From: Planctomycetales bacterium
GTDB taxonomy: Bacteria > 4484-113 > JAFGCY01
Reading direction: 5' to 3'
Length of the DNA stretch: 32,000 nucleotides
NCBI GenBank assembly: GCA_022646745.1
Contig: CP060262.1
Coordinates: 1,440,001 to 1,472,000 of the forward strand
The notes under the pieces are model-generated. The model searched no databases, was not told the origin of the DNA, and was given only the letters and a program-made list of their open reading frames with translations. Every line of letters starts with the position of its first letter. The first letter of the stretch is position 1. Made by a program: the position numbers and the translations under genes. Positions 4,514-32,000 of the stretch are shown one piece after another.

Positions 4514-4533
4514 GCAAAAACTGACTGAAAACC

Positions 4534-4578
4534 GAAAGCCCGCCGGCGCTGAGTTACAATCGCGCTGTGCGGGCTTTC
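4534..4578 (+). promoter_or_regulatory. Stem-loop whose 3' arm covers the start codon region of the next gene (terminator or translational occluder)
   Basis: GAAAGCCCGC (4534-4543) is perfectly complementary to GCGGGCTTTC (4569-4578). An inner 5-bp helix pairs ggcgc (4545-4549) with gcgct (4562-4566, one G-U pair). The 3' arm begins at the third base (4569) of the GTG at 4567, the only sensible start for the 223-aa lipoprotein, and is followed by the T-rich ctttcatcctttc. Confidence 0.35.
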
Positions 4579-5238: not shown

Positions 5239-5325
5239 GCGCGCCGGGTTGAACAATTGCCAAATTCCGGCCAATCCCCGGTGAACAGTATTAACGGTCA
5301 GCTGCGGCAGTGCTAGTCTGCTGGC

Positions 5326-5622
5326 ATGCTGGGAATTTTCGAGGAACTGGCACAAAAAACAGGTGCCGTAATGACTGAGGAAATCGTCGAGGTCCAGCGT
5401 ATCGAATGCCTCGGGGCGGCCTTCAACGGCCGGCGCGGGGAGTTTCGCATCGGCTGGATGATAGACCTCGGCTGGACCCGCGTGTCCACGCAGCTCACGG
5501 TGTCCCAGGCGGATGTCGAGCTTGGCGAGGACTGGCTCGTTGAGCGATTCTGCCGCAGCATCCTGGAGCGCGTGGCCGGAGTGCGGGCCTTCCTGCCCAA
5601 TGGCAGGGAAGCCGTCGCGTGA
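5326..5622 (+). CDS. Hypothetical small protein (98 aa)
   Basis: The + frame has strongly G/C-ending codons, which the overlapping minus ORF 5313..5630 lacks. No recognisable motif. Confidence 0.55.
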   Translation: MLGIFEELAQKTGAVMTEEIVEVQRIECLGAAFNGRRGEFRIGWMIDLGWTRVSTQLTVSQADVELGEDWLVERFCRSILERVAGVRAFLPNGREAVA

Positions 5623-5689
5623 TCGCCCATTGATTCACGAATAAGCGGTTTATTCAGTCAGGATCGGCCTTCCGTCTTTGCGCGCATTG

Positions 5690-5695
5690 TATAAT
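5690..5695 (+). promoter_or_regulatory. Candidate -10 hexamer TATAAT upstream of the M28 peptidase gene
   Basis: TATAAT at 5690-5695 has no convincing -35. It ends only 7 nt before the ATG at 5703, so either the mRNA is leaderless or the true start is the in-frame ATG at 5724 or 5730 (MAMRVSF...), preceded by GAGG. Confidence 0.25.
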
Positions 5696-5702
5696 CGCAG
5701 CC

Positions 5703-15092: not shown

Positions 15093-15280
15093 TGCTTTTC
15101 CAGCCAGTCGGACAGGCATGCTTGCCTGCCCTTTACAATTCTTCCACAAATTACATGCTACTTCAAATTGAGATGAAACCGACCGCCGGTACACAATTAA
15201 TGATTGGTATGTGTCACCATAAAATCCGGTAAAATCAGGGTGTTTACCCGTATTCCACGCTGAAACCAGAGGAATTCCTC

Positions 15281-18103: not shown

Positions 18104-18197
18104 GCTGCAGACCGGACTGCGATGCAACTGCTTGTCCTGGTTTGTCCTGGGTTAGAATCTGTGCGGACGGAACCCGGTAAAGTGCGAGGACAAGCGC

Positions 18198-20291
18198 ATG
18201 TTCAGACAGCTCAGTGGCCTGCTGGCCGGAGCGATGCTGCTGCTGGCAGCCTGCTCCAGCGGAAGTGGCGGCCAGGTAAACCAGCCGACAGGCGACGCTG
18301 TCCTGCCGCAGCTTGAATCGCAGCTGCCGGCCATTTCTGCCCTGCCTGCCATGCAGCGCAGTACCAGCAATACGCCGGAAGCCTGCATCCGCACGGGAGC
18401 CGACATCTACAAGGTCTCGGCGAAGATGAATGCCGAGGTGACCGGTGACAAGCTCTCGATGAGCCCGACCTATGATCCGCAGGGCGACCCGCCGATGCAT
18501 GGACTGAGCTGGGGGATCTACGGTTTCAACATCGCAGACTACCAGCGCGGCACGGAGATCCAGGCAAAGTGGAATGGCACTGCGCCCGCCAGCTCCGGCA
18601 TCTACATCGGGGTCAGTGATTACTCCAGCGGACACTGGCAGTGGCGCCAGGGTACGGCGGACGGGACCGTGGACTTCCCGGGGCTGGCTGACTATTTCTC
18701 TGCCAACGGCGACCTGTATGTGGTGGTGCTGCTGGCAACGGAGGGCCAGTTCACCTTCGGCAGGCTGCGCCTCGGCGGCAACTTCCCGCCGGTGATTGAT
18801 TACACGATTGACAACGACAGCGCCCAGGGCAAGCTGACGGTCAACATCGATGCCTCCGCCAGCTACGATCCGGATGGCACTCTGACTTTCTTTGAATGGT
18901 CCGCCGAGGGTGGGCCGATCTTCGAGCCATCCGGTCCGTTCCTGTACTGGGAGTATGACCATGTCGGCGAGTACGACTGCATAGGCAGGGCGCATGACCT
19001 CGAAGGAGGGATGACTGAATTTGTCATCCCGATCAGCGTGACCCCCGTGCCTGGCAATGACCCGCCGGTGGCCGATATCTACTCTGAATCTGAAGTGGAA
19101 TCCGGCCTGGTGCCGCTTTCCGTCACGCTCAATGCACAGGACAGCACGGACCCGGAGAACGGTTTCATGACATTCCGCTGGGACATTGACGAGGACGGGT
19201 ACTTCGAGCAGTTCACCTTTGGCAGTCCGGTGTTCAAGGCTCTGTACATCGCAGCCGGCACCTACAACCCCAGCGTGATGGTGATTGATGAGTTCGGTGC
19301 CGTCGACACGGCCACGATGCAGATCGAGGTGCTGCCCGTGGAGGGCACGGAAGCTCCCGTTGCCAGACTGGAAGCCGTCTACTGGTATGACAACACTGCG
19401 GGAGAACGGTACTTCACCGCACAGGGATCCTACGACCCTGACAATGACATCGTGAAGTACGAATGGGACTTCGAGGGTGACGGCACGTTCGACGTTGATT
19501 CAGGGATCGATCCCGTGAATAACGTGACCTATTCCCAGGATGGCGGCGTGTTCAACGTCACTATGAGGGTCACTGACAGCGGCGGACGCAGTGACACGGC
19601 AACCTGCCCCGTAATGGTCACGCCATTCTCCGGCCAGCCGGAGCTCGAACCGAATGACAGCCCGGAGACGGCGATCAGCCTGGGCAGTTTTGGCAACGAG
19701 TGCGTGCGGGTGCGCGACTTTCCCGGCCAGCTCAAGTTCGCTGAGGATACAGAGGACTGGTATGTGGTCCATGCCGCACACAACGGCCAGCTGTGGTTCA
19801 ACCTGATCTTCACGCACAGTTTCATGGACATGGACATTGAGATGTACAGCCCTCTTGACCTGGTGAACCCGCTGTACTTCAGCTACTCGGATACCGACAA
19901 CGAGTTCATGTCCGTATTAATTACGGCACCGGGGGACTACTTCCTGCGGGTGTTCACCGACCAGGCAGGGGAGGCCGGGCAGGACAGCGGCTACAAGCTG
20001 GACTTCTGGGACCCCTCCAAGCCGGTGGCTTTCGTCACGGCCTCCGCAACGGTAGTGGAGACGGGGACCGAGGTTGTGCTCAACGCGGGCCGCAGCTATG
20101 ACCGTTACCTGGAGGGCCTGATCTACTTCTTTGACATGGATGGCGACGGGATCTTCGAGAGCGAGCCCGGCGGATGGCTCGGTACTGGCACCGTCAGCTG
20201 GGAAGGACCGCAGGAGCTCGGCGTCAAGGTACAGGACATGCTGGGAATGGAGTCAATCGCCACGGTGACAGTGACGGGCATCGCCCCCTGA
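18198..20291 (+). CDS. Paralog 2 of the lipoprotein family: N-domain, PKD x3, PPC, PKD (697 aa)
   Basis: Lipobox: MFRQLSGLLAGAMLLLAACSSGSGG. N-domain nt 18342-18779 (LSWGIYGFNI...YIGVSDYSSGHWQWRQG...RLRLGGN). PKD motif: DPDNDIVKYEWDFEGDGTFD. PPC: ELEPNDSPETAISL...TEDWYVVHA...GDYFLRVF. Confidence 0.9.
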   Translation: MFRQLSGLLAGAMLLLAACSSGSGGQVNQPTGDAVLPQLESQLPAISALPAMQRSTSNTPEACIRTGADIYKVSAKMNAEVTGDKLSMSPTYDPQGDPPMHGLSWGIYGFNIADYQRGTEIQAKWNGTAPASSGIYIGVSDYSSGHWQWRQGTADGTVDFPGLADYFSANGDLYVVVLLATEGQFTFGRLRLGGNFPPVIDYTIDNDSAQGKLTVNIDASASYDPDGTLTFFEWSAEGGPIFEPSGPFLYWEYDHVGEYDCIGRAHDLEGGMTEFVIPISVTPVPGNDPPVADIYSESEVESGLVPLSVTLNAQDSTDPENGFMTFRWDIDEDGYFEQFTFGSPVFKALYIAAGTYNPSVMVIDEFGAVDTATMQIEVLPVEGTEAPVARLEAVYWYDNTAGERYFTAQGSYDPDNDIVKYEWDFEGDGTFDVDSGIDPVNNVTYSQDGGVFNVTMRVTDSGGRSDTATCPVMVTPFSGQPELEPNDSPETAISLGSFGNECVRVRDFPGQLKFAEDTEDWYVVHAAHNGQLWFNLIFTHSFMDMDIEMYSPLDLVNPLYFSYSDTDNEFMSVLITAPGDYFLRVFTDQAGEAGQDSGYKLDFWDPSKPVAFVTASATVVETGTEVVLNAGRSYDRYLEGLIYFFDMDGDGIFESEPGGWLGTGTVSWEGPQELGVKVQDMLGMESIATVTVTGIAP

Positions 20292-20403
20292 ATGATCGCT
20301 GGCGGATTGCTTCCTGGGAAAGTCAATGATCGAGACTGATCGAGTAGAATTTTCCCAGCCTCCTGCACTGCCATAAGGAACCAGGCAGGTTCAAGGAATA
20401 AAG

Positions 20404-22518
20404 ATGAAAGCTCTTCTCGCCATCGCGTGCGCAGGCTGCCTGCTGCTCGCGGCTTCATGCAGCAGCCAGCCGGCTCAACCGGAGCAAGCGGCTGACCTGC
20501 CCGTTTCCGCGCAGGCTGAGGTTGTACAGCTCAGTCCCTCGCTGTCTGACGGGCTGCCGGGTCTGGACAGCCTGCCTCAGCAGCAGCGCAGCGCCAGCAA
20601 TGTCCCGGAGGACTTCCTGCGGGATGGATATCAGACTTATCAGCCTGATGCATTCGCCAATGCGAGCATTGTCGGGAACATGCTTGTGATGGTTGCGGAT
20701 TACGAGCCAGCGGCCGAGCCGCCGACACGTGAGCTGAGCTGGGCGATCTACGGTTTCAACATCACTGATTTCCAGCGCCAGCCGGAACTGCAGGTACTGT
20801 GGGAAGGCCCCAGGCCGGACGGAGCGCGCCACTACATCGGTGTCAGCGACTTCAGCAGCAATCGCTGGCAATGGTTCCAGGGCACGGATCAGGACATCAT
20901 TGATTTCGGTAGCCTTGACGGCTACTTCTCCGGGAATGGCGACATCTATTTCACCATCCTGGTCGCGGACAAGGGCAACTTCAATCTCAGCCGGCTGCGT
21001 CTGGGGGAGAACCTGCCGCCCGTGGCCAGCCTGATCCCGAACCAGACCAGTGGAACGGGCTCTCTGGAGGTCCAGTTCGACGCCTCGGGATGCCACGATC
21101 CGGACGGCAGCATTGCAGGCTACGAATGGTCAATGGAGGATCCGGACTACACGGATTTCCGGTACCCGGCCCCGGTGGTTTTCTGGACTTACGACCACGC
21201 GGGCGAGTACACCTGCACACTGCGCCTGACGGACAATGACGGAGCCACCGCCGAGCTCAGCATCCCGATTTCGGTCGCCCTGGTGGATGGCAACGCTGCG
21301 CCGCTTGCCTCGATCGTGCCTGACACCAGCGGAGGACCGGTCCCGCAGTGGATCAACTTCGACTGCAGCGGCAGCAGTGACACGGACGGCTCGATAGCCG
21401 GCTACCGTTTCGACTTCGACGGAGACGGGCATTTCGAGATTTTTGGCAGTGCCGTGCAGAAGTGGTTCTTCGCCGAACCGGGCAGCTATGAGATCTCCGT
21501 GATGGCGATTGACAACCAGGGCAGCTTCGGCACAGCCTCAACCACGGTGGTGATTGACCCGGTTGATGGTACTGAGCCGCCGACCATCGTCGTCAAGTCC
21601 GACTACAGCTTCAACTCACCGGGTGCCTTCAGGATAGACTGGAGCGAGAGCAGCGACCCCGACAATGACATCGTCTCGTTCGAGACGGACCTGGAGGGTG
21701 ATGGCATATTCGATTATTCTTTCGCCCCCGGTGAGGAATTCGTGGCGACCTATGCCCAGACAGGGCAGACTTTCAACGCGACATTCCGCGTGACGGACAG
21801 CGGCGGCCGGACAGACGTTGCCAGCATACCGCTGCGGATCGGGCCGAATTCCGGCCTGGCGGAAACTGAACCCAACGGTACCCCGGGCGAGGCCGAGGAG
21901 TTCACCGGCTTCATGAACTACTCCAAGGGGATCTGCAACTGGAAGGGCTCACTGGATGAGGGCGGCGGCGACAGCGCGGACTGGTACTCCTTCGAATCCG
22001 ACCGCAGCGGTCCAGTGGCGTTCGTCGCGGATTTCCTCCGCAGCGAGATAGACATGCGCCTGGACCTGTATTCCGCCGGCGACACCGACAACCCACTGGC
22101 CAGCTCCCACGGCATCGTGGACAAGGAAATCCTCAAGTTCGAGCTACCCGCCGCCGGCCATTACCTGATCCGTGTGAGCATAGATCCCTCAGCACTGGCG
22201 AAGGGCCCCGGTGACTACACATTCCGCTGCCGCAACTATGACGGCCCGCACGCCGCCCTGTCCGCTGATCCACTCTTTGGGTCGGTTCCATTTGACATTT
22301 CGCTGGATGCATCTGCCAGCACAGTTGAGATGGGCTACATCACTGAATACCAGTTTGATGTCGACGGTGACGGGATCTTTGAAGTGACCGGCCAGTTCCA
22401 GCCCACCTATGACACGCAGATCACAGTACCCGGTGCAATCGTCGTCAGCGTGCGCGTAATCGATGAGTGGGGCCTCGCGGATACAGACTTCGTCATAGTC
22501 ACTGCCTTGCCCATTTGA
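20404..22518 (+). CDS. Paralog 3 of the lipoprotein family: N-domain, PKD x3, PPC, PKD (704 aa)
   Basis: Lipobox: MKALLAIACAGCLLLAASCSSQP. N-domain nt 20572-21006 (LSWAIYGFNI...YIGVSDFSSNRWQWFQG...RLRLGEN). PPC: ETEPNGTPGEAEEF...SADWYSFES...GHYLIRVS. Confidence 0.9.
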   Translation: MKALLAIACAGCLLLAASCSSQPAQPEQAADLPVSAQAEVVQLSPSLSDGLPGLDSLPQQQRSASNVPEDFLRDGYQTYQPDAFANASIVGNMLVMVADYEPAAEPPTRELSWAIYGFNITDFQRQPELQVLWEGPRPDGARHYIGVSDFSSNRWQWFQGTDQDIIDFGSLDGYFSGNGDIYFTILVADKGNFNLSRLRLGENLPPVASLIPNQTSGTGSLEVQFDASGCHDPDGSIAGYEWSMEDPDYTDFRYPAPVVFWTYDHAGEYTCTLRLTDNDGATAELSIPISVALVDGNAAPLASIVPDTSGGPVPQWINFDCSGSSDTDGSIAGYRFDFDGDGHFEIFGSAVQKWFFAEPGSYEISVMAIDNQGSFGTASTTVVIDPVDGTEPPTIVVKSDYSFNSPGAFRIDWSESSDPDNDIVSFETDLEGDGIFDYSFAPGEEFVATYAQTGQTFNATFRVTDSGGRTDVASIPLRIGPNSGLAETEPNGTPGEAEEFTGFMNYSKGICNWKGSLDEGGGDSADWYSFESDRSGPVAFVADFLRSEIDMRLDLYSAGDTDNPLASSHGIVDKEILKFELPAAGHYLIRVSIDPSALAKGPGDYTFRCRNYDGPHAALSADPLFGSVPFDISLDASASTVEMGYITEYQFDVDGDGIFEVTGQFQPTYDTQITVPGAIVVSVRVIDEWGLADTDFVIVTALPI

Positions 22519-22640
22519 ACCATGCCAGGGGTAGCTGGGACCTGCTTGCCGCGAAGCTCAGTTTGGTGATTCTTTCAGCTAGAATTCTGTGCTGCCCCTC
22601 CAGCATGCTGGAGAGTATCCGGGCGCAGTGAGGAATAAAG

Positions 22641-24740
22641 ATGCGTGCTTCATTTGCCCTTCTGCTGGCAGGCTGCCTTTTCTGCCTGGCAGCCTGTTCA
22701 TCCGGCGCTGCCAACCTGCAGGAAAAGGCTGCCACGCCTGAGCGCCAGTCCGGTCCGGTTGAACTGCCGCAGGACCTGCTTGCCCAGCTTCCAGCCCCGG
22801 CCGAGCTGCCCGCCGTTGGGCGCAGCTTCAGTGATACACCGGCGGACTACATCCGCAAGGGTGCGGAGATCATCACGCCCGGCAGCCGCGAGAATGCGAT
22901 CGTGTTCGGGGACAGCCTGCTGATGGCCCCGGACTGGGACCCCGCCGCCAACCCGCCGAAGCTGGATGTGAGCTGGGGCATCTACGGTTACCACCTGCCG
23001 GGATTCGCAAGGGAGGCTCAGGTCGACCTGCAGTGGGGCGTGCGCCCGGACTCCGGCGAGTACTACGTCGGCATCACGGATTACGGCAGCGGCCGCTGGA
23101 AATGGCAGCTTGGCAATGACGATGACCACTTCGACTTCGGCTCGCTGGACGGCTATTTCTCGAACTTCGACGCGATCTACTGCTGCGTGTTGCTGACCGG
23201 CAGCGGCAGCTTCGAGCTGACCCGTGTGCGGCTCGGTGGCAACTTCGCCCCGACCGCCAGCTTCACCGTGGCCCAGGACAGCGGCCAGTACTTCTTCACC
23301 ACAGGGTTTGACGGCTCCGCCAGCTCCGACCTGGATGGCACGATCGCCGAGTACCACTGGTCATTCGAGGACCCAATCTACTTCACACCCGGTGACCTCG
23401 GGCCGACCCCCAGCCACGACTACGACCATGTCGGCACCTTCACCTGCACCCTGCGCGTGGTTGATAACGAAGGTGGCACCGGCGAAGCCACCGCCACGAT
23501 CAATGTGACCGGTGAACCGGGCAACCTGCCACCGATCGCGGACATCGTGGCCTTGCCGAACGGCGGTCCGCTGCCCCAGGCCATCAACTTTGACGCCTTC
23601 AACAGCATGGACCCGGATGGCGGCATCGTCAATTACCGCTGGGACCTTGACGACGACGGGTTCCATGAGCTGCAGACCCCGGTCCCCTTCGCCTACCGCG
23701 AATTCATCGAGGCTGGCACCTTCACCGTCGGGGTGATGGTGATCGATTTCTTCGGGGAAAGTGCCACGGCCACGACGGATGTCACGATCACTCCGATCAG
23801 CGGTGAGAACCCACCCACTGCTGAACTGAGCATCGACTACTACTGCCTGCAGAGCGGAATCATCCGTTACATCGACACGAGCGGCCTCGTGGACCCCGAC
23901 AATGACATCGTCAAGTACGAATGGGACTTCGAGGGTGACGGCACGTTTGACTATGACCTCGGCCTGAACCCCGGTGGTGACATCACCTACACGCTGCCCG
24001 GCGAATTCACGCCAACGGTGCGCATCACCGACAGTGGTGAGCGGGAGGCCACCGCCAGCCTGAAGGTGATCGTGTCAAACGGGGTGGACCCGCAGGAGAC
24101 TGAGCCCAACAATGCCGAGACGGAGGCGGACAGCCTCGGCGGTTTCCTCAACTACGCGAAGCATATCCGCGACTGGAGTGCTAGCGTCGGCGGCAGCGAC
24201 ACCGAGGACTGGTACGCGATCGATGCCGACCGGGCCACGACCGCCAGCTTCTGGGTGGACTTCAGTTCGGCGACGGTCGACCTTTCACTGGCTCTGTACC
24301 ATGAGTCAGACCTGGTCGTTCCGTTGATTGAATCGATTGACAACGTGGACCGTGAATACATCAACTTTGGCCTGCCGGCCGCCGGGCGCTACTACCTGAA
24401 GGTGTTCGTGCCCGGTTCCGCCATCGAGACCGGCCCGGGCAACTACAAGCTGACCTGCCTGGAGAACCATCCGCCCATCGCCGTGCTGACTGGATCACCG
24501 GACATTGGGTTTGCACCCTTGCTGGTAATGCTGGATGCCAGCCTGAGCTCGGACGATGAGGACGGGCTGTCGGTCATCTTTGACTATGACCTGGACGGTG
24601 ACGGCTTCTTCGAAACCACCTTTGAGAACAGCACGATCAATACGACCCTCGTCTCACCCGGGTCATACCCGCTTGCTGTGCGGGTAACGGATTCGCTCGG
24701 GGAAACTGACATCGCCTACAAGATAATCACCGTGAACTAG
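22641..24740 (+). CDS. Paralog 4 of the lipoprotein family: N-domain, PKD x3, PPC, PKD (699 aa)
   Basis: Lipobox: MRASFALLLAGCLFCLAACSSGAAN. N-domain nt 22806-23240 (VSWGIYGYHL...YVGITDYGSGRWKWQLG...RVRLGGN). PPC: ETEPNNAETEADSL...TEDWYAIDA...GRYYLKVF. Confidence 0.9.
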   Translation: MRASFALLLAGCLFCLAACSSGAANLQEKAATPERQSGPVELPQDLLAQLPAPAELPAVGRSFSDTPADYIRKGAEIITPGSRENAIVFGDSLLMAPDWDPAANPPKLDVSWGIYGYHLPGFAREAQVDLQWGVRPDSGEYYVGITDYGSGRWKWQLGNDDDHFDFGSLDGYFSNFDAIYCCVLLTGSGSFELTRVRLGGNFAPTASFTVAQDSGQYFFTTGFDGSASSDLDGTIAEYHWSFEDPIYFTPGDLGPTPSHDYDHVGTFTCTLRVVDNEGGTGEATATINVTGEPGNLPPIADIVALPNGGPLPQAINFDAFNSMDPDGGIVNYRWDLDDDGFHELQTPVPFAYREFIEAGTFTVGVMVIDFFGESATATTDVTITPISGENPPTAELSIDYYCLQSGIIRYIDTSGLVDPDNDIVKYEWDFEGDGTFDYDLGLNPGGDITYTLPGEFTPTVRITDSGEREATASLKVIVSNGVDPQETEPNNAETEADSLGGFLNYAKHIRDWSASVGGSDTEDWYAIDADRATTASFWVDFSSATVDLSLALYHESDLVVPLIESIDNVDREYINFGLPAAGRYYLKVFVPGSAIETGPGNYKLTCLENHPPIAVLTGSPDIGFAPLLVMLDASLSSDDEDGLSVIFDYDLDGDGFFETTFENSTINTTLVSPGSYPLAVRVTDSLGETDIAYKIITVN

Positions 24741-24793: not shown

Positions 24794-25192
24794 ATGAACA
24801 CCGTTGGACAGTACAACTGGGTGGCACTCTTCCTGCTGGGCGGGGCGGTGCTGATCGGGCTGGCATTCGCTTTCCTGAACCTGTGGCGTCCGCGGCGGCC
24901 GAACTTCCTCAAGCGCCTGAGCTATGAATCCGGCGCGCAGGCCACCGGTGACGCGCTGGTGCGCTTCAACATCCGCTTCTACATCCTCGCGATCGTGTTC
25001 CTCATGTTCGACGTGGACATCATGTTCATCTTTCCCTGGGCCACCGCCTTCCGGCTGCTGGTGTTCGGTAATGACGACATCACCTTCACGCCGATCGGGG
25101 CCGCCTCACTGGGTGAGATGTTCGTGTTCCTCGGCATCCTGCTCGTCGGCTGGGCCTATGCCTACCGCAAGGGAGCGCTGGAATGGGTCTGA
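24794..25192 (+). CDS. nuoA: NADH-quinone oxidoreductase subunit A homolog (ND3/NuoA family)
   Basis: Family hallmarks: SYESG, FNIRFYILAIVFLMFDVDIMFIFPWA, YRKGALEW. Three predicted TM segments. Overlaps the next gene by 10 nt. Confidence 0.9.
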   Translation: MNTVGQYNWVALFLLGGAVLIGLAFAFLNLWRPRRPNFLKRLSYESGAQATGDALVRFNIRFYILAIVFLMFDVDIMFIFPWATAFRLLVFGNDDITFTPIGAASLGEMFVFLGILLVGWAYAYRKGALEWV

Positions 25193-25635
25193 AGGACCTC
25201 ATCCGCGAGGCCAGTGCCCATTCCCTGTGGCCGCTGATGCTCGGACTGGACTATGCCACGCTGGAACTGTTCAGCGCGATCTCGCCGCGCTATGACATCG
25301 CGCGCTTCGGCTCTGAGGTGATGCGCCCCAGCCCGCGCCAGGTGGACCTTTTGATCGTGGCCGGCGTCGTCAACAACAAGATGGCCCCGGTGATCCGCCG
25401 GCTGCATGCCTCGATGGCCGACCCGGCCTTCGTGATGGCATTCGGCGCGGGGGCGATCAGCGGCGCGCCCTTCGACGGCAGCTATGCGGTGGACGGGGGA
25501 GTGGACCGCATCGTACCAGTGGACATCTATGTGCCGGGCGACCCGCCGCGGCCCGAGCAGCTGATCGATGGCATCATCGCCCTGCGCGAGCGCATCCTCT
25601 CGGGTGCGCTGGATGAGCGGTTTGCGTGGCGGTAG
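25183..25635 (+). CDS. nuoB: NuoB/PSST-family subunit lacking all four cysteine ligands of Fe-S cluster N2
   Basis: Family motifs are conserved: SLWP, RYDIARFGSEVMRPSPRQVDLLIVAG, NKMAPVIRRL, VPVDIYVPG-PPRPEQL. At the E. coli ligand columns, GLSCCYVE reads GLDYATLE (D23 Y24, nt 25249-25254), MGACA reads FGAGA (G90, nt 25450-25452) and PGCPP reads PGDPP (D120, nt 25540-25542). Confidence 0.9.
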   Translation: MGLKDLIREASAHSLWPLMLGLDYATLELFSAISPRYDIARFGSEVMRPSPRQVDLLIVAGVVNNKMAPVIRRLHASMADPAFVMAFGAGAISGAPFDGSYAVDGGVDRIVPVDIYVPGDPPRPEQLIDGIIALRERILSGALDERFAWR

Positions 25636-25654: not shown

Positions 25655-26452
25655 ATGAGTATCAAGGCCAGCTGCCCTTGTCAGGTCAGGGAATCACTCC
25701 CCTGGGATCCTGATCCTCCTGCAAGTGTCCGGGAGGAAACCCCATACTTCAAACTGCACAAGCTCATCATCCGCAGGGAAAGCTGGCAACGCGGAATCCT
25801 GCACATCTGCACCAGATGCAATGCCGACTGGTATCTCGATCATGCATCGGGATTTCTGCTCAGAATTCCGGCAGGCTGCCTGGATAAGGCCAGGTCCTGG
25901 GATGCCGGTATGGAGAAACCGGCGAAAGTGCTTGCGGAACTGCTGCTGAACATTGGCAGCGTTGGATTCGCGGCGTTTCAAAGGCGGATGAAGTGGCTGA
26001 TGTTCCCATGCTGTGTCAGGGATCATGCGGGCGTCTGGCATGAGAAGGCCTTTGTCATCCTGAGTGCCTCGATGCCCCTTCCCGAATGGCAAAAGGGAGA
26101 GTCTGCATTGTCGGATGCAGCGCATGTTGAGCAGTCAAGGTTTGCCCTGCCGCTGGATATCCGCAGGGAAAGCTACAATGCCATGGAGATTGCCATGGGC
26201 TTCAATCCGACTTCGATCCGGACGTCATCCGGCCGCTGTTTCAATCTCTGGCCAAACACGGACTTCATGGACAAGGACGGGATCATCGGATCTGAATGCA
26301 GCCTGGCAACAGATGTCGATCCGTTTCGCCTCAAGCTGCTTACAAGCAGCGAGCTGGGGCCGCGACCATGGCGGCGCAATGTCCGGAGGGTTGACTACCC
26401 GACTTTCCATGGAGAGCTGACGGAGGATTTTGAGGATCTTCTGTATTCATAG
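25655..26452 (+). CDS. Hypothetical protein with an N-terminal CxC...CxxC motif (265 aa), inserted inside the nuo operon
   Basis: Starts 19 nt after the nuoB stop. Cys7, Cys9, Cys52 and Cys55 (SCPC...ICTRCNADWY) could form a zinc-ribbon-like site. GC is lower (53% in the 25741-25800 sample). It uses AGG/AGA Arg codons and many A/T-ending codons, unlike flanking genes. I recognise no family. Confidence 0.5.
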   Translation: MSIKASCPCQVRESLPWDPDPPASVREETPYFKLHKLIIRRESWQRGILHICTRCNADWYLDHASGFLLRIPAGCLDKARSWDAGMEKPAKVLAELLLNIGSVGFAAFQRRMKWLMFPCCVRDHAGVWHEKAFVILSASMPLPEWQKGESALSDAAHVEQSRFALPLDIRRESYNAMEIAMGFNPTSIRTSSGRCFNLWPNTDFMDKDGIIGSECSLATDVDPFRLKLLTSSELGPRPWRRNVRRVDYPTFHGELTEDFEDLLYS

Positions 26453-26807
26453 ACTGGCTCGTCTCGGATTTCCCAGTGAATCAGTCAACCTGAAGAACAA
26501 GGGTCAGGGATACCGGAAGAACCGGCGCGGCCCAGCCGCGATTGGGAGGGGATGCAGCGAAGTCAGGGAAATGCGGGGACTGGAGCTGATCAGAAAACTC
26601 TGTGCGCTCGGTGGCTCTGTGTTGACAATTCTCCAGTTTGACTGGGCTGAGGCTAGCCTGCACTTGGTTGGCAATGCGGCTGGGGCGGAGCGATATTGGT
26701 GAACGCAGAGCCGCAGAGTCTGGCAATGAGTGTCGTCGGGCTCATTGCTTGCTCCGCATTGCTCATTGCAGAGGGGCTTTCCGCGTGGCTGCGCGCACGC
26801 GGCGGAG

Positions 26808-26853
26808 TGTGGCTCTTGAGAGCCACAGGGCCCTGTTGGTCTGCAGACCAACA
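26808..26853. repeat. Two adjacent perfect hairpins or palindromes in a non-coding stretch
   Basis: tgtggctc-ttga-gagccaca (26808-26827) has an 8-bp stem and 4-nt loop. tgttggtctgcagaccaaca (26834-26853) is a 20-nt perfect palindrome. Both lie 90-135 nt downstream of the stop of the minus-strand gene ending at 26944. No T-tract on either strand. Confidence 0.6.
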
Positions 26854-26943
26854 CACCATCACTCATTGCCTCGCGGCATGCTATCCCAGGCTCAGAGGGA
26901 CTGCGCCACAACTTCCAACAACCGGTCTCTGGAATCCTTGCAG

Positions 26944-27309
26944 CTACTTCTTCTTCGTCGGCTTGGCCGGCAGTGATGAGACGTAGTCGTAGGACTTCCG
27001 GAACCAGCTGCGCAGTGTGCGTGTGTTACCAAACAGTGCAGGCGGCACGGTGACATACTCCCGCTGGACATATCCGGGGATAGAGTGGTAGAGCCGGGTA
27101 CCGTACTTCTCGAGGAAGGCCTCACGCTCATCCTTCGCCAGCCGCAGGCCGATCTCGTTGAACTTCGAGATGCTGGAGTACATATTGCCGTTCAGTGAAG
27201 TGTAGGGAGCCGCCGCCCCCCTGGCCTCGACCCCCTCCACGCCCTCGATCATCTTCATGTAGGCCGCGAGCACTGCCGGGTCCACATCCGCAAATTTGTT
27301 CTTCGCCAT
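26944..27309 (-). CDS. Small hypothetical protein (121 aa from MAKNKF), possibly TfoX-N/YjbR-like
   Basis: Likely start is the ATG at the complement of 27307-27309 (MAKNKFADVDPAVLAAYMKMIEG...). The lysine-rich tail is LPAKPTKKK. Its resemblance to small TfoX-N-like proteins is from memory only. It lies opposite to the nuo genes it interrupts. Confidence 0.55.
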   Translation of the reverse strand: MAKNKFADVDPAVLAAYMKMIEGVEGVEARGAAAPYTSLNGNMYSSISKFNEIGLRLAKDEREAFLEKYGTRLYHSIPGYVQREYVTVPPALFGNTRTLRSWFRKSYDYVSSLPAKPTKKK

Positions 27310-27492
27310 GCCTGCCTCCGGGCTGATTCTAGCTTTTGCTGCAGGGCCTTGGAACAGCATTGGAAGCTGCCCCATCGGCTAGAATTACAGGAACCTTCTG
27401 CATTTGATATGTATAAGGTAACGCTGTGGGGCTTTTGATCGTTTATATCTGTATGCCGATTGCCGTAATCCAGCCAGGATGGGGAGGACTTG

Positions 27493-28074
27493 GTGCTCCC
27501 TGATGAGCTTGCCGGTCAGATCCGCGAGGACTGCGGTGATGTGCTGCTGCTGGACCCCGCCCGCGGCTGGGCGATCCTGACGGACAGCGGCCAGCTGCAG
27601 CTGGTCTGCCGCCAGCTGAAGAACATCGGCTTCATCCGTGCGCTTAACATGACCGCCAACCACCTCGGCGGGCCGGACTTCCACCTCTACCTGACGCTCA
27701 GGCACGGCAGGCGGCATGATGTCAGTCTCACACTGAAATGGAAATTCACCCTGCTGGAGGGCAATGCCCCGGCAGCGGACAGGGGTGGGGAGGATACTGA
27801 AGCAGCGCCGGCCTATGCCGGGCAGAGCGTGCACCCCAGCCTGAGCCTGATCTGGCGGGCGACGGAGCTGATGGAGCGCGAGATCTTCGAGTTCTTCGGC
27901 ATCCCCTTCGCTGGCAACCCGAACCTCATCGGGCTGATCCTCGACCCGCAGCTGCAGGGCTTCCCGCTCAGGCGGGAATTCCGGGCTGCCTCACATGAGA
28001 ACTACGCAGAGAACGTGCTGAAGCAGCGCGCCGACGCGGCAATGCGGGAGGTGCTTGATGACGCGCAGCTCTGA
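27493..28074 (+). CDS. nuoC: NuoC/30-kDa-family subunit homolog
   Basis: Conserved C-terminal core: WRATELMEREIFEFFGIPFAGNPNLIGLIL...GFPLRREF (canonical W..A.W.ERE..D.FGI.F.GHP.L.R.L...HPLRKD). GGGGAGGA (27481-27488) precedes TTG 27490 and GTG 27493. The exact start is uncertain. Confidence 0.8.
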   Translation: MLPDELAGQIREDCGDVLLLDPARGWAILTDSGQLQLVCRQLKNIGFIRALNMTANHLGGPDFHLYLTLRHGRRHDVSLTLKWKFTLLEGNAPAADRGGEDTEAAPAYAGQSVHPSLSLIWRATELMEREIFEFFGIPFAGNPNLIGLILDPQLQGFPLRREFRAASHENYAENVLKQRADAAMREVLDDAQL

Positions 28075-29209
28075 TCGCCGTGTTGAGATCCGCCGCGACC
28101 CGCTGCTGACGGAGAAGCTGGTCTACTCCGTCGGTCCGCAGCACCCAAGCCTGCCGAGCCCGCTGGAGCTGCGGGTACAGGCGGACGGCGAGCTGATCGA
28201 GCGCATCACGCCGGAGGTCGGCTTCATGCATCGCGGCGTGGAGCAGCTGGTGACCCAGCGCAACTACGCCCAGGCGGCTGGGCTGTTGTCCCGCTGCGAA
28301 TGGCTGGCTGGCAGCAACGCCGACTGGCTGGTGGCGGATGCCATCGAGCGCATCGAGGGGATCACTATCCCGGCCCGCGCGCAGTGGCTGCGCACCCTTG
28401 TGCTGGAGCTGAGCCGGATCGGCAACCACCTGTTCTGGTTTGGCAACCTCGGTCTCGAGGCCGGCGCTTATACCCCGATCTTCATCTCGCTGCGCGAGCG
28501 CGAGATGCTGCTCGACCTGCTGGAGATGCTCAGCGGGCACCGCCACCACCATGGCTGGATCGTGCCTGGCGGCGTGCGCACTGCCCCGCCGGAGGACTTC
28601 AGCGGCCATGTGCGGGCATTTTGCCTGTGGTTCCAGGGCCGGCTGGATGAATACGAGGACTTCTTCTCTGACAACGCAATCTGGATCAACCGCAGCGAGC
28701 TGATCGGCACGCTCGAGCCCGAGTTTGCCTTCGAGCATGGCGCCACCGGGCCGGTGCTGCGTGGCAGCGGGATCGCGCATGACCTGCGCCGCGACCAGCC
28801 CTATGCGATGTACGGCGAGCTGGACCTGCATGTGCCGACCGGAGAGTATGGCGATGTGCTGGACCGCTACCGCGTGCGCTTCGTCGAGATGCGCGAGAGC
28901 CTGCGCATCATCGAGCACTGCCTGGCTTACATTGACAACGGCGAGCTGCGCAATGCGGAAGTCAACCCGGACTTCGCGCAGATGGCGGTCTCGCGCGGCG
29001 AGGTCTACACGGCGGTCGAGAGCCCGCGCGGCGAGCTCGGCCTGACGCTCGTCAGCGACGGCACGAACCGCCCAAACCGCATGCACCTGCGTGCGCCGAG
29101 CCTGTACCACCTGTTCCTGCTGGACGAGCTGTGCCGCGGTTACCTGCTGGCGGACCTGTTCGTGATCTACGGCAGCCTCGACATCATGATCGGGGAGGTC
29201 GACAAGTGA
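28058..29209 (+). CDS. nuoD: NuoD/49-kDa-family subunit lacking the quinone-binding His and Tyr, with no NiFe Cys motifs
   Basis: Family motifs: VGPQHPS, GFMHRGVEQL, LELSRIGNHL, YGDVLDRYRVRFVEMRESLRII, ESPRGELG, LRAPSLYHL, GSLDIMIGEVDK. Against Thermus Nqo4, GPQHPSTHGV reads GPQHPSLPSP (P33 at the His38 column, nt 28154-28156) and RMDY reads RCEW (W82 at the Tyr87 column, nt 28301-28303). It overlaps nuoC by 17 nt. Confidence 0.88.
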   Translation: MTRSSDRRVEIRRDPLLTEKLVYSVGPQHPSLPSPLELRVQADGELIERITPEVGFMHRGVEQLVTQRNYAQAAGLLSRCEWLAGSNADWLVADAIERIEGITIPARAQWLRTLVLELSRIGNHLFWFGNLGLEAGAYTPIFISLREREMLLDLLEMLSGHRHHHGWIVPGGVRTAPPEDFSGHVRAFCLWFQGRLDEYEDFFSDNAIWINRSELIGTLEPEFAFEHGATGPVLRGSGIAHDLRRDQPYAMYGELDLHVPTGEYGDVLDRYRVRFVEMRESLRIIEHCLAYIDNGELRNAEVNPDFAQMAVSRGEVYTAVESPRGELGLTLVSDGTNRPNRMHLRAPSLYHLFLLDELCRGYLLADLFVIYGSLDIMIGEVDK

Positions 29210-30984
29210 TGCTCCCGATGCTGGCAATCCTGCAGCAGCGCTACGACATGGACGAGGCCCGCACCGTCTGGGAGGCGATGCGCGCCTGGCTCAATACCGA
29301 GCCGCTGCCCGGCCTGCGCTTCAGCCCGGAGGTTGCCAACGGCATCATGCTGGTGACGGCGCTCCTGCTGATCTTCCTCCTGGAGCTGATGATCACCATC
29401 GGCCTGCAGGTCTGGGAGCGCCGCCTGATGGCACGCATGCAGGGCCGCCGCGGCCCGCAGGAGTACGGCGAGGTCACCCCGCAGCGCTTCCGGCGGATCT
29501 TCATGCAGATCGGCGTGCTGATCGGCCTGCCCGCGCTGCTGTACGGCATCAACTACTGGACCGGCGGCACCGCCGGCTGGCAACAGTTCGGTGGCTGGAT
29601 CATCCTGTTCTTCGCCGTGGGCATGATGGGGCTGATCAACCGGCTGATGATCCTGCCGGCGCTCGGCCGGATGCAGGCCGCGCAGACCTCCGTCTGGCGC
29701 TTTCTGGCAACGCTGCTCTCGCTTTTGGCCTGGCCATCCCTCGCAGCCTGCGGCGGCATGCTCGTCGCTCTCCTGCTGGGCTTCATCCCGAAGGCGCACA
29801 TCCCCTTCCTGCCGCAGCTCACCGTACTGTGCACCGTGGTCGCCTTCGTGCTCTACATGAGCTACATGTTGCGCTACTACTGGCGCCAGGGCTTCTACGA
29901 CACGATCAAGATCTTCTTCAAGGAAGACACCGTCCCGCTCAGCGCTGACAAGCTCTTGTACCTGATCGCGCCGATCCTCGTCTACCTGCCGGCGCTGCTG
30001 AGCTGGGTGGTGATCCCGTTTGGCGTGGCGGCGGTCGACGGGCAGATCATCTACTACATGATCCAGGACCTGAACGTCGGCCTGCTTCTGATCATCGCCG
30101 ACTTCGCGATGTTCCTCGTGGCCGTGATCATGTCCGGCTACGCCTCCAACAACAAATATGCACTGGTCGGCGCAATGCGCGAGGCCGCCATGCTGCTGAC
30201 CTACGAGATCCCGATGCTGATGAGCCTCCTGTGCGTTGCCATCTTCGCCGGTTCGCTGAACCTGACGGAGATCGTGCAGCGCCAGACGATGACCTGGGGC
30301 ATCCTGCCGCTGTTCCCGGCCTTCATCATCTACTTCGTCGTCAGCCTGGCTGAGACCAACCGCCCGCCGTTTGACCTGCCGGAAGCGCAGAACGAGCTTT
30401 TGGGAGGTTACCTCGTGGAGTACAGCGGGATGCGCTTCGCGCTGTTCTACGTCGCCGAGTATTCGAACGTGTTCATCGTCAGCGCGATCATGACCGTCTG
30501 CTTCTTCGGCGGCTGGAAGGGCCCGATGTTCCTCGGCCCCGACGGGCTGTGGCTGACGAGCCTGTTCTGGTTCCTGCTGAAGACCTATGCCGTGTGCTTC
30601 TTCTTCATCTGGGCGCGTTCCACGATGCCGCGCATCCGCGTGGACCAGATCATGTTCTTCTCCTGGAAGTTCCTGCTGCCGGCCAGCGTGGTCGTGATGG
30701 CGGCCACGGCGCTCGGCGTCGTCAACCGCCATCCCTGGTTCAGCGCGAACCAGATCGCAGTGTCAGACGTTGACGTGACCGCTCTGCAGCGCGTCACCCA
30801 GTTCCAGACATTGACAACGGCCGAGGCACTGGCGGTGATGACAGTCCCCGAGAAGGCCTTCTTCTGGGGCTACAACGTGCTGTGCCTGTTCTTCGGACTG
30901 TTCATCCTGATGATGGCCTGGCGCATCCTGTTCGTGGCGCGCCGCCATCCGCAGCCCCGCCGGGAGGTGAGCTGGACCGGATGA
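29209..30984 (+). CDS. nuoH: Expanded NuoH/ND1-family membrane subunit (591 aa against about 325-350 typical)
   Basis: The core is conserved: ERRLMARMQGRRGPQ, IKIFFKEDTVPLSADKLLYLIAP, SGYASNNKYALVGAMREAAMLLTYEI, AETNRPPFDLPEAQNELLGGYLVEYSGMRFALFYVAEYSNV, MPRIRVDQIMFFSWKFLLP. The start ATG at 29209 shares its A with the nuoD stop (TGATG). There is an extra ~43-aa N-terminus, a ~140-aa hydrophobic insertion (aa 85-227, nt 29461-29889) and a ~80-aa C-terminal extension with one more TM helix. Confidence 0.88.
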   Translation: MLPMLAILQQRYDMDEARTVWEAMRAWLNTEPLPGLRFSPEVANGIMLVTALLLIFLLELMITIGLQVWERRLMARMQGRRGPQEYGEVTPQRFRRIFMQIGVLIGLPALLYGINYWTGGTAGWQQFGGWIILFFAVGMMGLINRLMILPALGRMQAAQTSVWRFLATLLSLLAWPSLAACGGMLVALLLGFIPKAHIPFLPQLTVLCTVVAFVLYMSYMLRYYWRQGFYDTIKIFFKEDTVPLSADKLLYLIAPILVYLPALLSWVVIPFGVAAVDGQIIYYMIQDLNVGLLLIIADFAMFLVAVIMSGYASNNKYALVGAMREAAMLLTYEIPMLMSLLCVAIFAGSLNLTEIVQRQTMTWGILPLFPAFIIYFVVSLAETNRPPFDLPEAQNELLGGYLVEYSGMRFALFYVAEYSNVFIVSAIMTVCFFGGWKGPMFLGPDGLWLTSLFWFLLKTYAVCFFFIWARSTMPRIRVDQIMFFSWKFLLPASVVVMAATALGVVNRHPWFSANQIAVSDVDVTALQRVTQFQTLTTAEALAVMTVPEKAFFWGYNVLCLFFGLFILMMAWRILFVARRHPQPRREVSWTG

Positions 30985-31451
30985 GGATGCTGTCAACGAG
31001 CCAGAACCTGCTGCACATCCTCGGTGAGCTGCTGCTCGTGGCCGCCGGGGCCTGGGGCCTGTACCTGCGCATCGTGCTCGGCATCGCGCCGGTGCTGACG
31101 ACGCAGTGGTTCGGTCCGCTGGCCCTGCTGGCGATCGGCCTGCTGCTGGCCGTGCTGCCGCTCACCCCGGCCCGCAATGCGGCCTGGATCAACCCCTGGT
31201 TCAGGCAGCGTCCGGGAGTCGCTTCACTGCTGTGGAGCTTCGCGGCCTGCGGCTGCCTGTATTCGCTGTGGCTGCAGTACGAGCTGCAGTTCACACTCAG
31301 GCCAGTGCTGCTCTTGGCGCCAGGCTTCCTTTACTGGTTCGTGGTGACGGCGCCGGGGCACCATGCCCAGCTGCGCAACATTGCCGCAGCCGGGGCGCAG
31401 GAGGCAGTTGCCAGCGAAGGACAGTCGGTGGAGGAGGTGCAGCGTGCCTGA
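30981..31451 (+). CDS. Hypothetical polytopic membrane protein (156 aa) at the position normally held by nuoI
   Basis: ATGA overlap with the nuoH stop (30981-30984). About four hydrophobic helices (LLHILGELLLVAAGAWGLYLRIVLGIAPVL, GPLALLAIGLLLAVLPL, SLLWSFAACGCLYSLWL, VLLLAPGFLYWFVVTAP). No CxxCxxCxxxCP ferredoxin motifs. GC3 is high. Confidence 0.65.
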   Translation: MRMLSTSQNLLHILGELLLVAAGAWGLYLRIVLGIAPVLTTQWFGPLALLAIGLLLAVLPLTPARNAAWINPWFRQRPGVASLLWSFAACGCLYSLWLQYELQFTLRPVLLLAPGFLYWFVVTAPGHHAQLRNIAAAGAQEAVASEGQSVEEVQRA

Positions 31452-32000
31452 CGGGCATGACCTGACAATCCACCATCCGCTGCCGAAGCGCTGGTTCGGC
31501 TACACCGCGATGGACTGGTTCAAGTTCTACGGCTTCATCGCCGTGTCCTGGTTCACGCTGGTGTTCGTCTACACGAAGTACGGCGCACTGTTTGATGACT
31601 ATGCCTCCAAGCAGCCCACCGAGCAGTACTCGCTGATGTGGTTCACCGCCAGCGGCCTGCTGCTGGCCCTGCCTGCGATCCTCGGCTTCTTCTGGTGGGC
31701 CTCCGGCGCGCTTGTGAAGTACAGCCGCTGGATGCTGCGCGACTTCACACTCTGGCGCCTGCTGCTGTTCGTGATCATCCTGTTCTTCTTCATCGTCGAG
31801 TTTGACCCGCTGGACCGGATCCACCCGAAGATGAGCGTGAAGGGCATCGCCGACACGCCGAACCTGACGCTGCTGCTGAGCGGCGAGGGCTTCGCGATCT
31901 GGCGCGAGACCGGCAGCCTCCCGGTGTTCAAGTTCCAGCTCGGCTATTTCCTGCTCTGGGCGCTGTTCTGGTTCCTGGTGTTCGTGCTCAACCTGAGTTA
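31444..32000 (+). CDS. Hypothetical polytopic membrane protein (partial, continues beyond the window)
   Basis: Absent from the ORF track because it has no in-window stop. I translated the frame from GTG 31444 to the edge and found no stop: VPDGHDLTIHHPLPKRWFGYTAMDWFKFYGFIAVSWFTLVFVYTKY...LWRLLLFVIILFFFIVEF...FLLWALFWFLVFVLNLS. It overlaps the previous gene by 8 nt. An alternative start is ATG 31510. It has no obvious resemblance to NuoI, NuoJ, NuoK or the NuoL N-terminus. Confidence 0.6.
   Translation, partial: MPDGHDLTIHHPLPKRWFGYTAMDWFKFYGFIAVSWFTLVFVYTKYGALFDDYASKQPTEQYSLMWFTASGLLLALPAILGFFWWASGALVKYSRWMLRDFTLWRLLLFVIILFFFIVEFDPLDRIHPKMSVKGIADTPNLTLLLSGEGFAIWRETGSLPVFKFQLGYFLLWALFWFLVFVLNLS

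Follow-up and report, generated by a model that had tools for sequence, protein, structure and literature searches.

Gene order and identification of nuoH

The window analyzed here is a stretch of 32,000 nucleotides from a Planctomycetales bacterium (contig CP060262.1, positions 1,440,001 to 1,472,000). It carries part of a nuo operon encoding homologs of complex I (NDH-1) subunits, in which the membrane subunit NuoH is enlarged by an insert of 143 amino acids (aa). The genes are found in the order nuoA (starting at 24794), nuoB (25183), two unrelated genes, nuoC (27490), nuoD (28055), nuoH (29209) and two genes termed X1 (30981) and X2 (31444). In related loci, the full operon has the order nuoA-B-C-D-H-X1-X2-J-K-L-M. 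Among the loci read for comparison, L081, L082, L083, L086, L087 and L089 bear the insert like the window. The loci L084 and L088 belong to a sister class with NuoH proteins of about 445 aa and no insert, which is called redox-competent in the following.

The nuoH gene (29209-30984, forward strand) encodes a protein of 591 aa. Its ATG overlaps the stop codon of nuoD by one base, and the homologs likewise start with MLP..LLQQRY. The Pfam profile PF00146 matched the protein with an E-value of 3.2e-97 and 326 bits (cut-off 27), the match being broken into two stretches. The larger one pairs aa 226-500 with the profile positions 43-297. The alignment to E. coli NuoH agrees with this result: aa 39-87 correspond to residues 5-53 and aa 230-502 to residues 62-318, and about 142 residues occupy a span where E. 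coli NuoH has 8. An AlphaFold2 (AF2) model based on 71 sequences reached a mean pLDDT of 85 and a pTM of 0.86. Its core (about 279 columns) superposes on E. coli NuoH with a root mean square deviation of 2.6-3.2 Å and a Foldseek TM-score of about 0.75, and a fold search of the PDB gave no match to the parts of NuoH beyond this core. Judged by the profile, the modeled core fold and the E-channel carboxylates, the open reading frame (ORF) is a member of the NuoH/ND1 family. One trait of this family is not found, since the link of about 10 aa between RxGP and the amphipathic helix measures 143 aa in the window.

The original prediction had described an oversized NuoH with extensions of about 43 aa at the N-terminus and about 80 aa, including an extra transmembrane (TM) helix, at the C-terminus. 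The two alignments support the enlarged reading, and the extensions were measured as 43 and 86 aa, respectively. The C-terminal extension (aa 506-591; 30724-30981, forward strand) is modeled as a beta hairpin (aa 515-534, strands 515-522 and 527-534) followed by one TM helix (aa 546-576). Both extensions are also present in the redox-competent class and are thus older than the insert.

Structure and conservation of the NuoH insert

The insert comprises aa 85-227 (29461-29889, forward strand) and is located between RRGP and WRQG. From RRGP to WRQGFYDTIKIFFKED, 143 residues were counted in the window; here and below, the insert length is counted from RxGP to the conserved Gln of (L)LQ..AD..K. 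In all 30 NuoH sequences without insert in the 71-sequence alignment, the same gap is 9-10 aa long. The block of about 140 mostly hydrophobic residues that had been proposed between RxGP and AD..K.FFKED is therefore confirmed, as is its position between TM1 with the RxGP motif and the amphipathic helix beginning at AD..K.FFKED. The roughly four helices assigned to it were found by both methods applied: the hydropathy profile has four hydrophobic segments, and the AF2 model has helices at aa 91-117, 124-154, 161-190 and 201-224, with a pLDDT of about 81-95 over the block. Stretches rich in Arg and Lys follow TM1, separate the insert helices 2 and 3 and follow helix 4. This fits an in-out-in-out-in topology of the insert which leaves the remainder of NuoH unchanged.

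The four helices form two nested hairpins of different conservation. The first helix of the outer hairpin (aa 91-117 in the AF2 model; 29479-29559, forward strand) has the consensus frrv..Pi..LLa.PA.LYGleYW, and the second one (aa 201-224, AF2; 29809-29880, forward strand) has the family consensus Tv.CT..AF.iY.vY..gwyWR and runs into WRQG and the helix AH1. No conserved charge within the membrane was found in the family consensus of the outer hairpin. The inner hairpin (aa 121-195; 29569-29793, forward strand; AF2 helices 124-154 and 161-190) is missing from the short forms, which have inserts of about 69 aa and keep the conserved outer hairpin alone. Its sequence is not recognizably similar across subclades, even among close relatives. 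In every case it is made up of two hydrophobic stretches, and the number of Lys and Arg residues is at least that of Asp and Glu in 19 of 19 long forms. Based on the loop charges, the inner hairpin most likely sits at the periplasmic turn of the outer one.

The ratio of nonsynonymous to synonymous substitutions (dN/dS) was determined against L086 and L087, the two nearest relatives for which DNA is available. Values against the distant L081 and L083 were discarded, being saturated or distorted by misalignment of the insert. The ratio was 0.39-0.40 for the whole insert, 0.08-0.09 for the NuoH core, 0.05-0.10 for TM1 and 0.27 for the C-terminal extension. Within the insert, it amounted to 0.23-0.30 for aa 85-120, 0.31-0.42 for aa 196-227 and 0.41-0.43 for the inner hairpin. 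By these rates the insert is coding and under selection, with a tighter constraint on the outer than on the inner hairpin.

When aa 85-227 were searched by phmmer against a set of 1.84 billion representative proteins, nothing was hit at an E-value of 0.001 or below, so that no homologous independent membrane protein was found. The relatives were not recovered either, which indicates that the block evolves fast; the reach of a single hydrophobic query is also limited. When three inserts were compared by BLASTP to the other operon proteins and to NuoH with the insert masked, only chance-level matches were obtained. An origin by duplication of neighboring helices or by capture of another subunit is therefore unsupported.

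Distribution of the insert-bearing NuoH

Besides one identical protein, the protein search returned about 45 more representatives of clusters of the family from NCBI, ENA, JGI and Logan, and an insert at the same point was confirmed in 41 sequences, the window included. Some of these insert-bearing relatives are located on contigs of 2.7 Mb and 1.9 Mb. The clade is diverse, comprising 41-48 clusters with identities down to 53%. The insert length has a trimodal distribution: 9-10 aa in ordinary NuoH and in the class of about 445 aa, 67-76 aa in the short forms and 128-173 aa in the long forms. One N-terminally cut sequence with an insert of 84 aa was counted with the short group. Comparable insertions were not observed in ordinary complex I, as the gap is 9-10 aa in all canonical sequences checked.

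In a neighbor-joining tree of the NuoH core, which was calculated without bootstrap, the insert-bearing proteins form one clade that is sister to the class of about 445 aa. This tree speaks for a single origin of the insert. The long forms make up about half of the lineages and interleave with the short forms at least six times. The clade apparently belongs to the GTDB phylum 4484-113, and the sister class includes OPX21309.1 from 'Planctomycetales bacterium 4484_113'. A scan of contigs by patterns derived from the most conserved NuoH motifs yielded only canonical NuoH proteins from unrelated phyla. In the cluster-member listings, no single genome was found that ties the cofactor-less to the redox-competent form.

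Loss of redox residues in NuoB and NuoD

NuoB of the window (25183-25635, forward strand; 150 aa; PF01058) contains no cysteine. Compared to Nqo6 of T. thermophilus, GLACCAIE is changed to GLDYATLE, GACASSG to GAGAISG and PGCPP to PGDPP. All four cysteine ligands of the iron-sulfur (Fe-S) cluster N2 are thereby replaced, namely by Asp, Tyr, Gly and Asp (CC..C..C to DY..G..D). Among the 48 closest NuoB clusters (61-97% identity), PGDPP was matched in 46 and GLDYxTLE in 33, whereas PGCPP was matched in none; in the two other clusters the PGDPP motif was not found. The next 72 NuoB matches all keep a cluster cysteine in GxCA..GG or PGCPP, and 68 of them keep both motifs. The 48 NuoB clusters without N2 cysteines approximately equal in number the 46 top-ranked NuoH clusters (P0001-P0046), of which 41 are confirmed to bear the insert.

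The nuoD gene (28055-29209, forward strand) encodes 384 aa (PF00346, E-value 2.5e-80) with a remodeled quinone and N2-facing site. At 20 positions that are at least 85% conserved in 59 canonical sequences, all six clade members compared are altered. The His-Gly-Val of the beta1-beta2 loop is changed to Pro/Ala-Ser/Ala-Pro, the quinone-site His34 being replaced by Pro, Ala or Val (Pro in the window). Tyr83, the Tyr of DRxDY, is replaced by Trp. His and Tyr are kept in 59 of 59 canonical sequences. In addition, Asp135, the partner of the quinone His, is changed to Glu and Arg170 to Val. A seventh locus, L089, has the same replacements of His and Tyr. The new residues are fixed rather than drifting, both in NuoB (DY..G..D) and in NuoD (P36, W83, E82 and V170). 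In canonical complex I, the His/Asp pair of NuoD is described as the proton donor to quinone, and the loops concerned line the cavity (Sazanov review, PMC10212512).

At 28520-28540, aa 156-162 of the window NuoD read SGHRHHH, where canonical sequences have sGaRmha and the clade has SGHR(H/W)HH. H157 and H160 are present in six of six clade members, and the motif varies between HRHHH, HRWHH and HRWHG. It surrounds a conserved His which we take, from the T. thermophilus structure, to be close to cluster N2. This His motif and the Asp-Tyr..Asp of NuoB might fill a void or bind a cation.

X1, X2 and the NuoI position

X1 (30981-31451, forward strand) encodes a new small membrane protein of 156 aa, the start of which overlaps the nuoH stop (ATGA). 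It has no Pfam or PDB match. Homologs were found at the same place in L081, L083, L086, L087 and L089. X1 is absent from the redox-competent L084 and L088, and in L082 its usual place between nuoH and X2 is taken by a nucleotidyltransferase/HepT toxin-antitoxin pair (11830-12443). A further gene of L082 (9304-9840), which is located between nuoD and nuoH, encodes an unrelated membrane protein of 178 aa.

X2 (31444-32000, forward strand) is a membrane protein at the NuoI position; the window ends after 185 of its about 330 aa. In related loci it lies between nuoH/X1 and nuoJ. The full-length relatives have 0-2 cysteines, no CxxCxxCxxxCP motif and no Fer4 match in Pfam. Their first approximately 240 residues are similar (BLASTP, 5e-20) to the N-terminal membrane domain and the YP..(8)..RG strand of NuoI from L084, a Fer4-bearing protein of 358 aa with two CxxCxxCxxxCP motifs. 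Due to this match to the L084 NuoI fusion and the gene position, X2 is best read as a NuoI derivative without clusters.

Other approaches contributed little to the assignment of X2. A homology search with the partial window X2 recovered two proteins only, and a profile of five sequences had no match in the PDB. In the hhalign comparison to E. coli NuoI, only the 26-aa motif YP..LPP.YRG was aligned (E-value 0.014, probability 3%). One profile hit linking X2 to NuoI was rejected as circular, since the underlying alignment contained true NuoI. The AF2 model of the X2 homolog P0241 (three sequences) had a pLDDT of 45.6 and was unusable. By profile, hhalign and AF2, the C-terminal part alone is not demonstrable as a ferredoxin fold. 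In X1 and X2, motifs and Pfam domains of a heme or flavin type were not found.

Co-occurrence of the insert and the loss of redox elements

The quinone His and Tyr of NuoD are lost in seven of seven insert-bearing loci and kept as THG and DY in L084 and L088. The N2 cysteines of NuoB are lost in all four insert-bearing loci that carry nuoB (window, L081, L082 and L083); L084 keeps CC..C..C, and nuoB was not identified on the 4.6-kb contig of L088. All five complete copies of the protein at the NuoI position (L081, L082, L083, L086 and L087) have 0-2 cysteines and no cluster motif, while NuoI of L084 and L088 has two CxxCxxCxxxCP motifs each. X1 was found in six of the seven insert-bearing loci. 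The co-occurrence spans short (L083) and long inserts.

The larger finding is a clade-wide remodeled complex I, apparently without redox chemistry, of which the NuoH insert is the most visible marker. Only the derived clade has lost all redox ligands, and it alone has the NuoH hairpin, X1 and an extended NuoJ. The anchoring of NuoI in the membrane, the longer NuoK and the layout with two antiporter-like subunits are shared with the redox-competent sister and are therefore older.

For the electron input, no NuoEFG or equivalent module was found in the operon of the window and L081-L087. The related operons have no nuoEFG, no recognizable nuoI and only two PF00361 subunits. The complex of ten subunits (NuoA, B, C, D, H, I, J, K, L and M) has accordingly lost N2, both 4Fe-4S motifs, the quinone His/Tyr and an input module in the operon. 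Judged by these missing ligands, it cannot carry electrons by the known complex I route and is probably no longer a respiratory enzyme. In the original prediction, the affected loop was said to line the quinone tunnel and to couple redox chemistry to the membrane arm. The anatomy is correct, and the functional reading is right only in part. The coupling to redox chemistry does not apply to the complex of the window, with its N2 cysteines and quinone His/Tyr missing, a cysteine-poor protein at the NuoI position in the relatives and no NuoEFG in the operon.

Conservation of the proton path

The residues of the proton path are kept in the membrane arm. In L081-L083, NuoK has E36 and E72, NuoL has E144, D178, K229, H254, K342 and K399, and the M-type subunit has E144, K234, K265, H322, H348 and E407. 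TM3 of NuoJ is close in sequence to that of E. coli. In NuoH, E333 (aligned with Glu157 of E. coli), E392, E396, E404, R470, R475 and D479 are invariant, and E382, E239 and D247 (the latter two corresponding to E71 and D79 of E. coli) are at least 90% conserved. Only few residues lining the NuoH cavity differ consistently, namely Q328, E394, H402 and W311.

Purifying selection was also found for the other genes tested. Against L086 and L087, dN/dS was 0.18-0.26 for NuoC, 0.17-0.19 for NuoD, 0.30-0.34 for X2 and 0.40-0.43 for X1. From the standpoint of these ratios, the operon is a maintained machine and not a decaying one.

The antiporter-like subunits number only two, with NuoN missing (L081 14391-18292, L082 14984-19168, L083 13309-17145 and L084 13404-17256). 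One is L-type (about 720-750 aa), the other M-type with a Glu at TM12 (543-636 aa). NuoJ of the cofactor-less clade has an N-terminal extension of about 50-130 aa resembling extra TM helices. NuoK is extended at the N-terminus by up to about 55 aa in L081 and L083 and by less in L082; these extensions were read at L081 13144-14313, L082 13456-14984 and L083 11894-13294. In the redox-competent L084, the NuoK extension is about 45 aa long and the NuoJ extension is absent.

Comparison to known systems

The operon shares with complex I lacking NuoEFG the homologs of NuoA, B, C, D, H, J, K, L and M in their usual order. The NuoH core superposes, and the central axis of charged residues is intact. 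The differences are the missing ligands of N2 and N6a/N6b, the missing quinone His/Tyr and NuoN, and the additional parts: two or four helices inserted in NuoH, X1, a cluster-less membrane NuoI and the extended NuoJ and NuoK. The best PDB matches of NuoD are 49-kDa subunits (6e-83), ahead of Mbh (5e-44) and Hyc (2e-31), and NuoB matches Nqo6 (6e-38). Since NuoD is closest to the 49-kDa subunits and NuoA, J and K are present, the complex is a derivative of complex I and not of group 4 hydrogenases.

The redox-competent class of L084 and L088 is the sister group on the tree and has the same NuoH extensions and a NuoI with an N-terminal membrane domain of about 200 aa. L084 furthermore shares the extended NuoK, the two antiporter-like subunits and an operon without NuoEFG; the contig of L088 ends before nuoK and the antiporter genes. 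The redox-competent class differs by its NuoD His/Tyr, the NuoI motifs, the NuoB cysteines (L084) and the gap of 9-10 aa, and it has no X1, no NuoJ extension (L084) and no NuoH insert. Upstream of nuoA in L084, a divergent cytochrome b gene (Ni_hydr_CYTB) and genes for two proteins with faint Pfam matches to multiheme cytochromes are located at 3634-6506 on the reverse strand. These genes may point to the electron partners that the ancestral form used.

Among the relatives of complex I, the Mrp cation/proton antiporter (Mnh/Sha) is the only well-known one to operate without redox chemistry. It combines two antiporter-like subunits, MrpA and MrpD, which are related to NuoL/M/N, with the NuoK-like MrpC. 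Unlike the complex described here, Mrp has no NuoH, NuoA or NuoB/C/D/I arm and possesses MrpB, E, F and G. The operon proteins, including X1 and X2, have no Pfam match to Mrp families. The likeness would be a functional and conjectural one, and the complex is not a member of the Mrp family. In the usual evolutionary scenario, Mrp and a hydrogenase gave rise to complex I, and the route suggested here runs in reverse. Mrp-like subunits are also mentioned in the literature on Ehr complexes (PMC6349859).

Ehr is a member of the complex I/group 4 hydrogenase superfamily whose catalytic subunit has no active-site ligands and whose function is unassigned (PMC10284858; PMC6349859). As a superfamily member with a disabled catalytic subunit it is the nearest concept. 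However, the large subunits of Ehr show a relationship to group 4 (4f) hydrogenases and are devoid of the NiFe CxxC motifs, and a coupling to redox chemistry is still generally assumed for these complexes. The complex described here has NuoA, J and K and a NuoD of the complex I type, and it has lost the Fe-S ligands themselves; for Ehr, a loss of Fe-S ligands is not reported in the texts compared. Some small subunits of Ehr may likewise be without cluster ligands.

The Pyrococcus complexes MBH and MBS resemble the present complex in not using membrane quinone, and the hydrogenase chamber is sealed from the lipid (PMC8357420). In contrast, they keep three Fe-S clusters and the catalytic site. 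Their NuoH homologs (6cfw_M and 6u8y_M) have 309-321 aa and are too short for such an insert.

The literature search revealed no description of a cofactor-less complex I or of the NuoH insert found here, and phylum 4484-113 is barely mentioned; as most subscription journals were outside its scope, this absence is no proof of novelty. In the public databases, the proteins are labeled "NADH-quinone oxidoreductase subunit H/B". With these labels, metabolic reconstructions would assign a respiratory complex I in error to genomes of phylum 4484-113.

Proposed function of the remodeled complex

We propose, with moderate confidence, that the insert is a structural NuoH hairpin located where quinone used to enter, in a complex that lacks redox elements and acts as a gradient-driven ion translocator similar to Mrp. 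In the E. coli structure, the entrance of the quinone cavity is located beside H-TMH1 and H-AH1, and the membrane-bound hydrogenases, which work without quinone, have a cavity that is sealed off completely (PMC8357420). Since the insert lies between TM1 and AH1, both of which border the entrance in known structures, the hairpin would be placed beside this lipid-facing opening. There, it could seal or remodel the opening of a chamber into which quinone no longer enters. It may also buttress or dock the new membrane parts. New helices are concentrated at the NuoH end of the arm, with two or four in NuoH and others in X1, the X2 domain and the NuoJ and NuoK extensions, and the candidates for docking would be X1, the membrane domain of X2 and the N-terminal extensions of NuoJ and NuoK. 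As no conserved intramembrane charge was found, the hairpin is probably structural and unlikely to be an ion path. The inner hairpin might be a dispensable, lipid-facing add-on. The assembly would run on ion gradients, either as a Mrp-like cation/proton exchanger or as a related gradient-driven device. Gradients are suggested as driver because a redox input is missing, and the exchanger is favored because Mrp provides the known precedent. The cofactor-less peripheral arm would be retained as a lid of the chamber.

Several points weigh against this proposal. The hairpin placement was deduced from chain connectivity, and the hairpin could widen the entrance instead of closing it. No cation-binding signature was found, and MrpB, E, F and G are absent. 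The genes nuoJ, K, L and M lie past the window end, so that their state is known from the relatives only. The selection on the peripheral arm (NuoD dN/dS 0.17-0.19) and the fixed new residues suggest more than a lid. Furthermore, an electron partner or a second, normal complex I elsewhere in the genome is possible.

More tentatively, at chances that we put slightly below even, the complex might be a complex I stripped of electron transfer yet active. Its arm would be driven by, or would drive, an event in the rebuilt chamber, for example the attachment of a cation, a metal or some other ligand to the fixed Asp-Tyr-Asp/His site, and the hairpins, X1 and the X2 membrane domain would be a new membrane module at the former quinone gate. 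If so, a previously unrecognized class of gradient-driven complex I derivatives would be at hand, in which coupling is separated from redox chemistry. This could be a new functional class if activity were shown. A central question in complex I research is how events in the quinone chamber reach the distant antiporter-like subunits. The clade offers a natural system in which the coupling machinery appears without electron transfer, the axis from chamber to arm being selected and the entrance rebuilt. It also documents how a redox pump may have evolved into a device without redox chemistry, and its redox-competent sister still exists for comparison.

Among the alternatives, a repurposed quinone chamber is the likeliest, although we regard it as unlikely. 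In this reading, the Asp-Tyr..Asp of NuoB and the Pro, Trp, Glu and additional His of NuoD, combined with the NuoH hairpins, X1 and X2, would create a site for a new ligand, a cation or a metal, or else a route for a hydrophobic substrate. The proton-motive force, transmitted by NuoL/M, would drive chemistry or transport there, similar to NDH-1MS/CupA or DAB, which couple proton flow to CO2 hydration. Such a role would suit the substituted residues, which are fixed across the 48 NuoB clusters and six NuoD sequences, and the purifying selection on the peripheral arm. It would also suit the retention of NuoJ TM3, part of the NuoH TM5-6 loop, NuoH D247 and E239 and the FDVD of NuoA. A bioRxiv preprint on NDH-1MS' reports redox-coupled CO2 hydration by a relative of complex I. 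However, the operon encodes no catalytic domain, metal-binding motif or carbonic-anhydrase-like protein, no neighbor outside the operon is conserved across L081-L087, and the His-rich NuoD motif is variable.

A complex that is still a redox enzyme is very improbable. In this case the partners would be encoded elsewhere, which is compatible with the data, cofactors other than Fe-S clusters would be used, and a quinone tunnel still at work would be widened by the insert, which comes close to what the original prediction implied. Canonical features are indeed seen in the NuoH core, the E-channel and the amphipathic helix. The electron path to quinone in known complex I, however, uses N6a, N6b and N2. 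Against this requirement, the window NuoB is free of cysteine, X2 has 0-2 cysteines and no cluster motif, the His/Tyr pair of NuoD is gone, and X1 and X2 show neither a heme or flavin motif nor a corresponding Pfam domain.

Marginally less credible still is a decaying relic operon in which the insert is tolerated junk in a pseudo-enzyme. The inner hairpin does have the features expected of such material: it evolves fast, is dissimilar across subclades, is present and absent in interleaved lineages and has a relaxed dN/dS of about 0.4. Nevertheless, all tested genes are intact and under purifying selection with overlapping starts and stops, the clade is diverse, the proton-path residues are kept and the outer hairpin is well conserved. 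Finally, it is all but excluded that the insert results from faulty assembly, a frameshift or a wrongly called ORF: no point was found for it, the frame is open and coding-like, the insert recurs at the same point in independent assemblies, among them the megabase-sized contigs and one with the identical protein, and it is under purifying selection.

Remaining operon genes and neighboring genes

The nuoA gene (24794-25192, forward strand) encodes 132 aa (PF00507, E-value 1e-27) with the FDVD..PW motif kept and overlaps the start of nuoB. For nuoC (27490-28074, forward strand; 194 aa), PF00329 matched with an E-value of 9e-16, the match covering the C-terminal part only. The operon genes are joined by overlapping starts and stops, as in translational coupling. 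In the closest relatives, nuoA and nuoB are not beside nuoC, which indicates a split operon in the subclade of the window.

Between nuoB and nuoC, the ORF at 25655-26452 (forward strand) encodes 265 aa with a Cys/His-rich N-terminus and has no Pfam match. It is followed by a small TfoX_N-like gene (26944-27375, reverse strand; Pfam E-value 2.4e-6, under the gathering score), which is divergent and located just upstream of nuoC. Its true start is probably the Met of MAKNKF, resulting in about 122 aa. Near-identical genes were found at the same place in L089 (717-1085, reverse strand) and L086 (6612-6980, reverse strand). The TfoX-like protein may be a regulator or simply a conserved neighbor of the split operon. 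The GC content at 26001-27000 is 0.576, compared to about 0.62 in the adjacent stretches.

Upstream of the operon, four tandem paralogs with PKD domains (940, 697, 704 and 699 aa) are located beside a 1257-aa S8 subtilase with an Ig domain (15281-24740, forward strand, and 11421-15194, reverse strand). Three of the four paralogs also match the PPC domain. The cluster looks like one for secreted or cell-surface proteins unrelated to nuo. A 779-aa ankyrin-repeat protein is encoded at 7879-10218 (reverse strand) in an island of low GC content (0.53 at 8001-10000, compared to about 0.62), and its gene may have been acquired horizontally.

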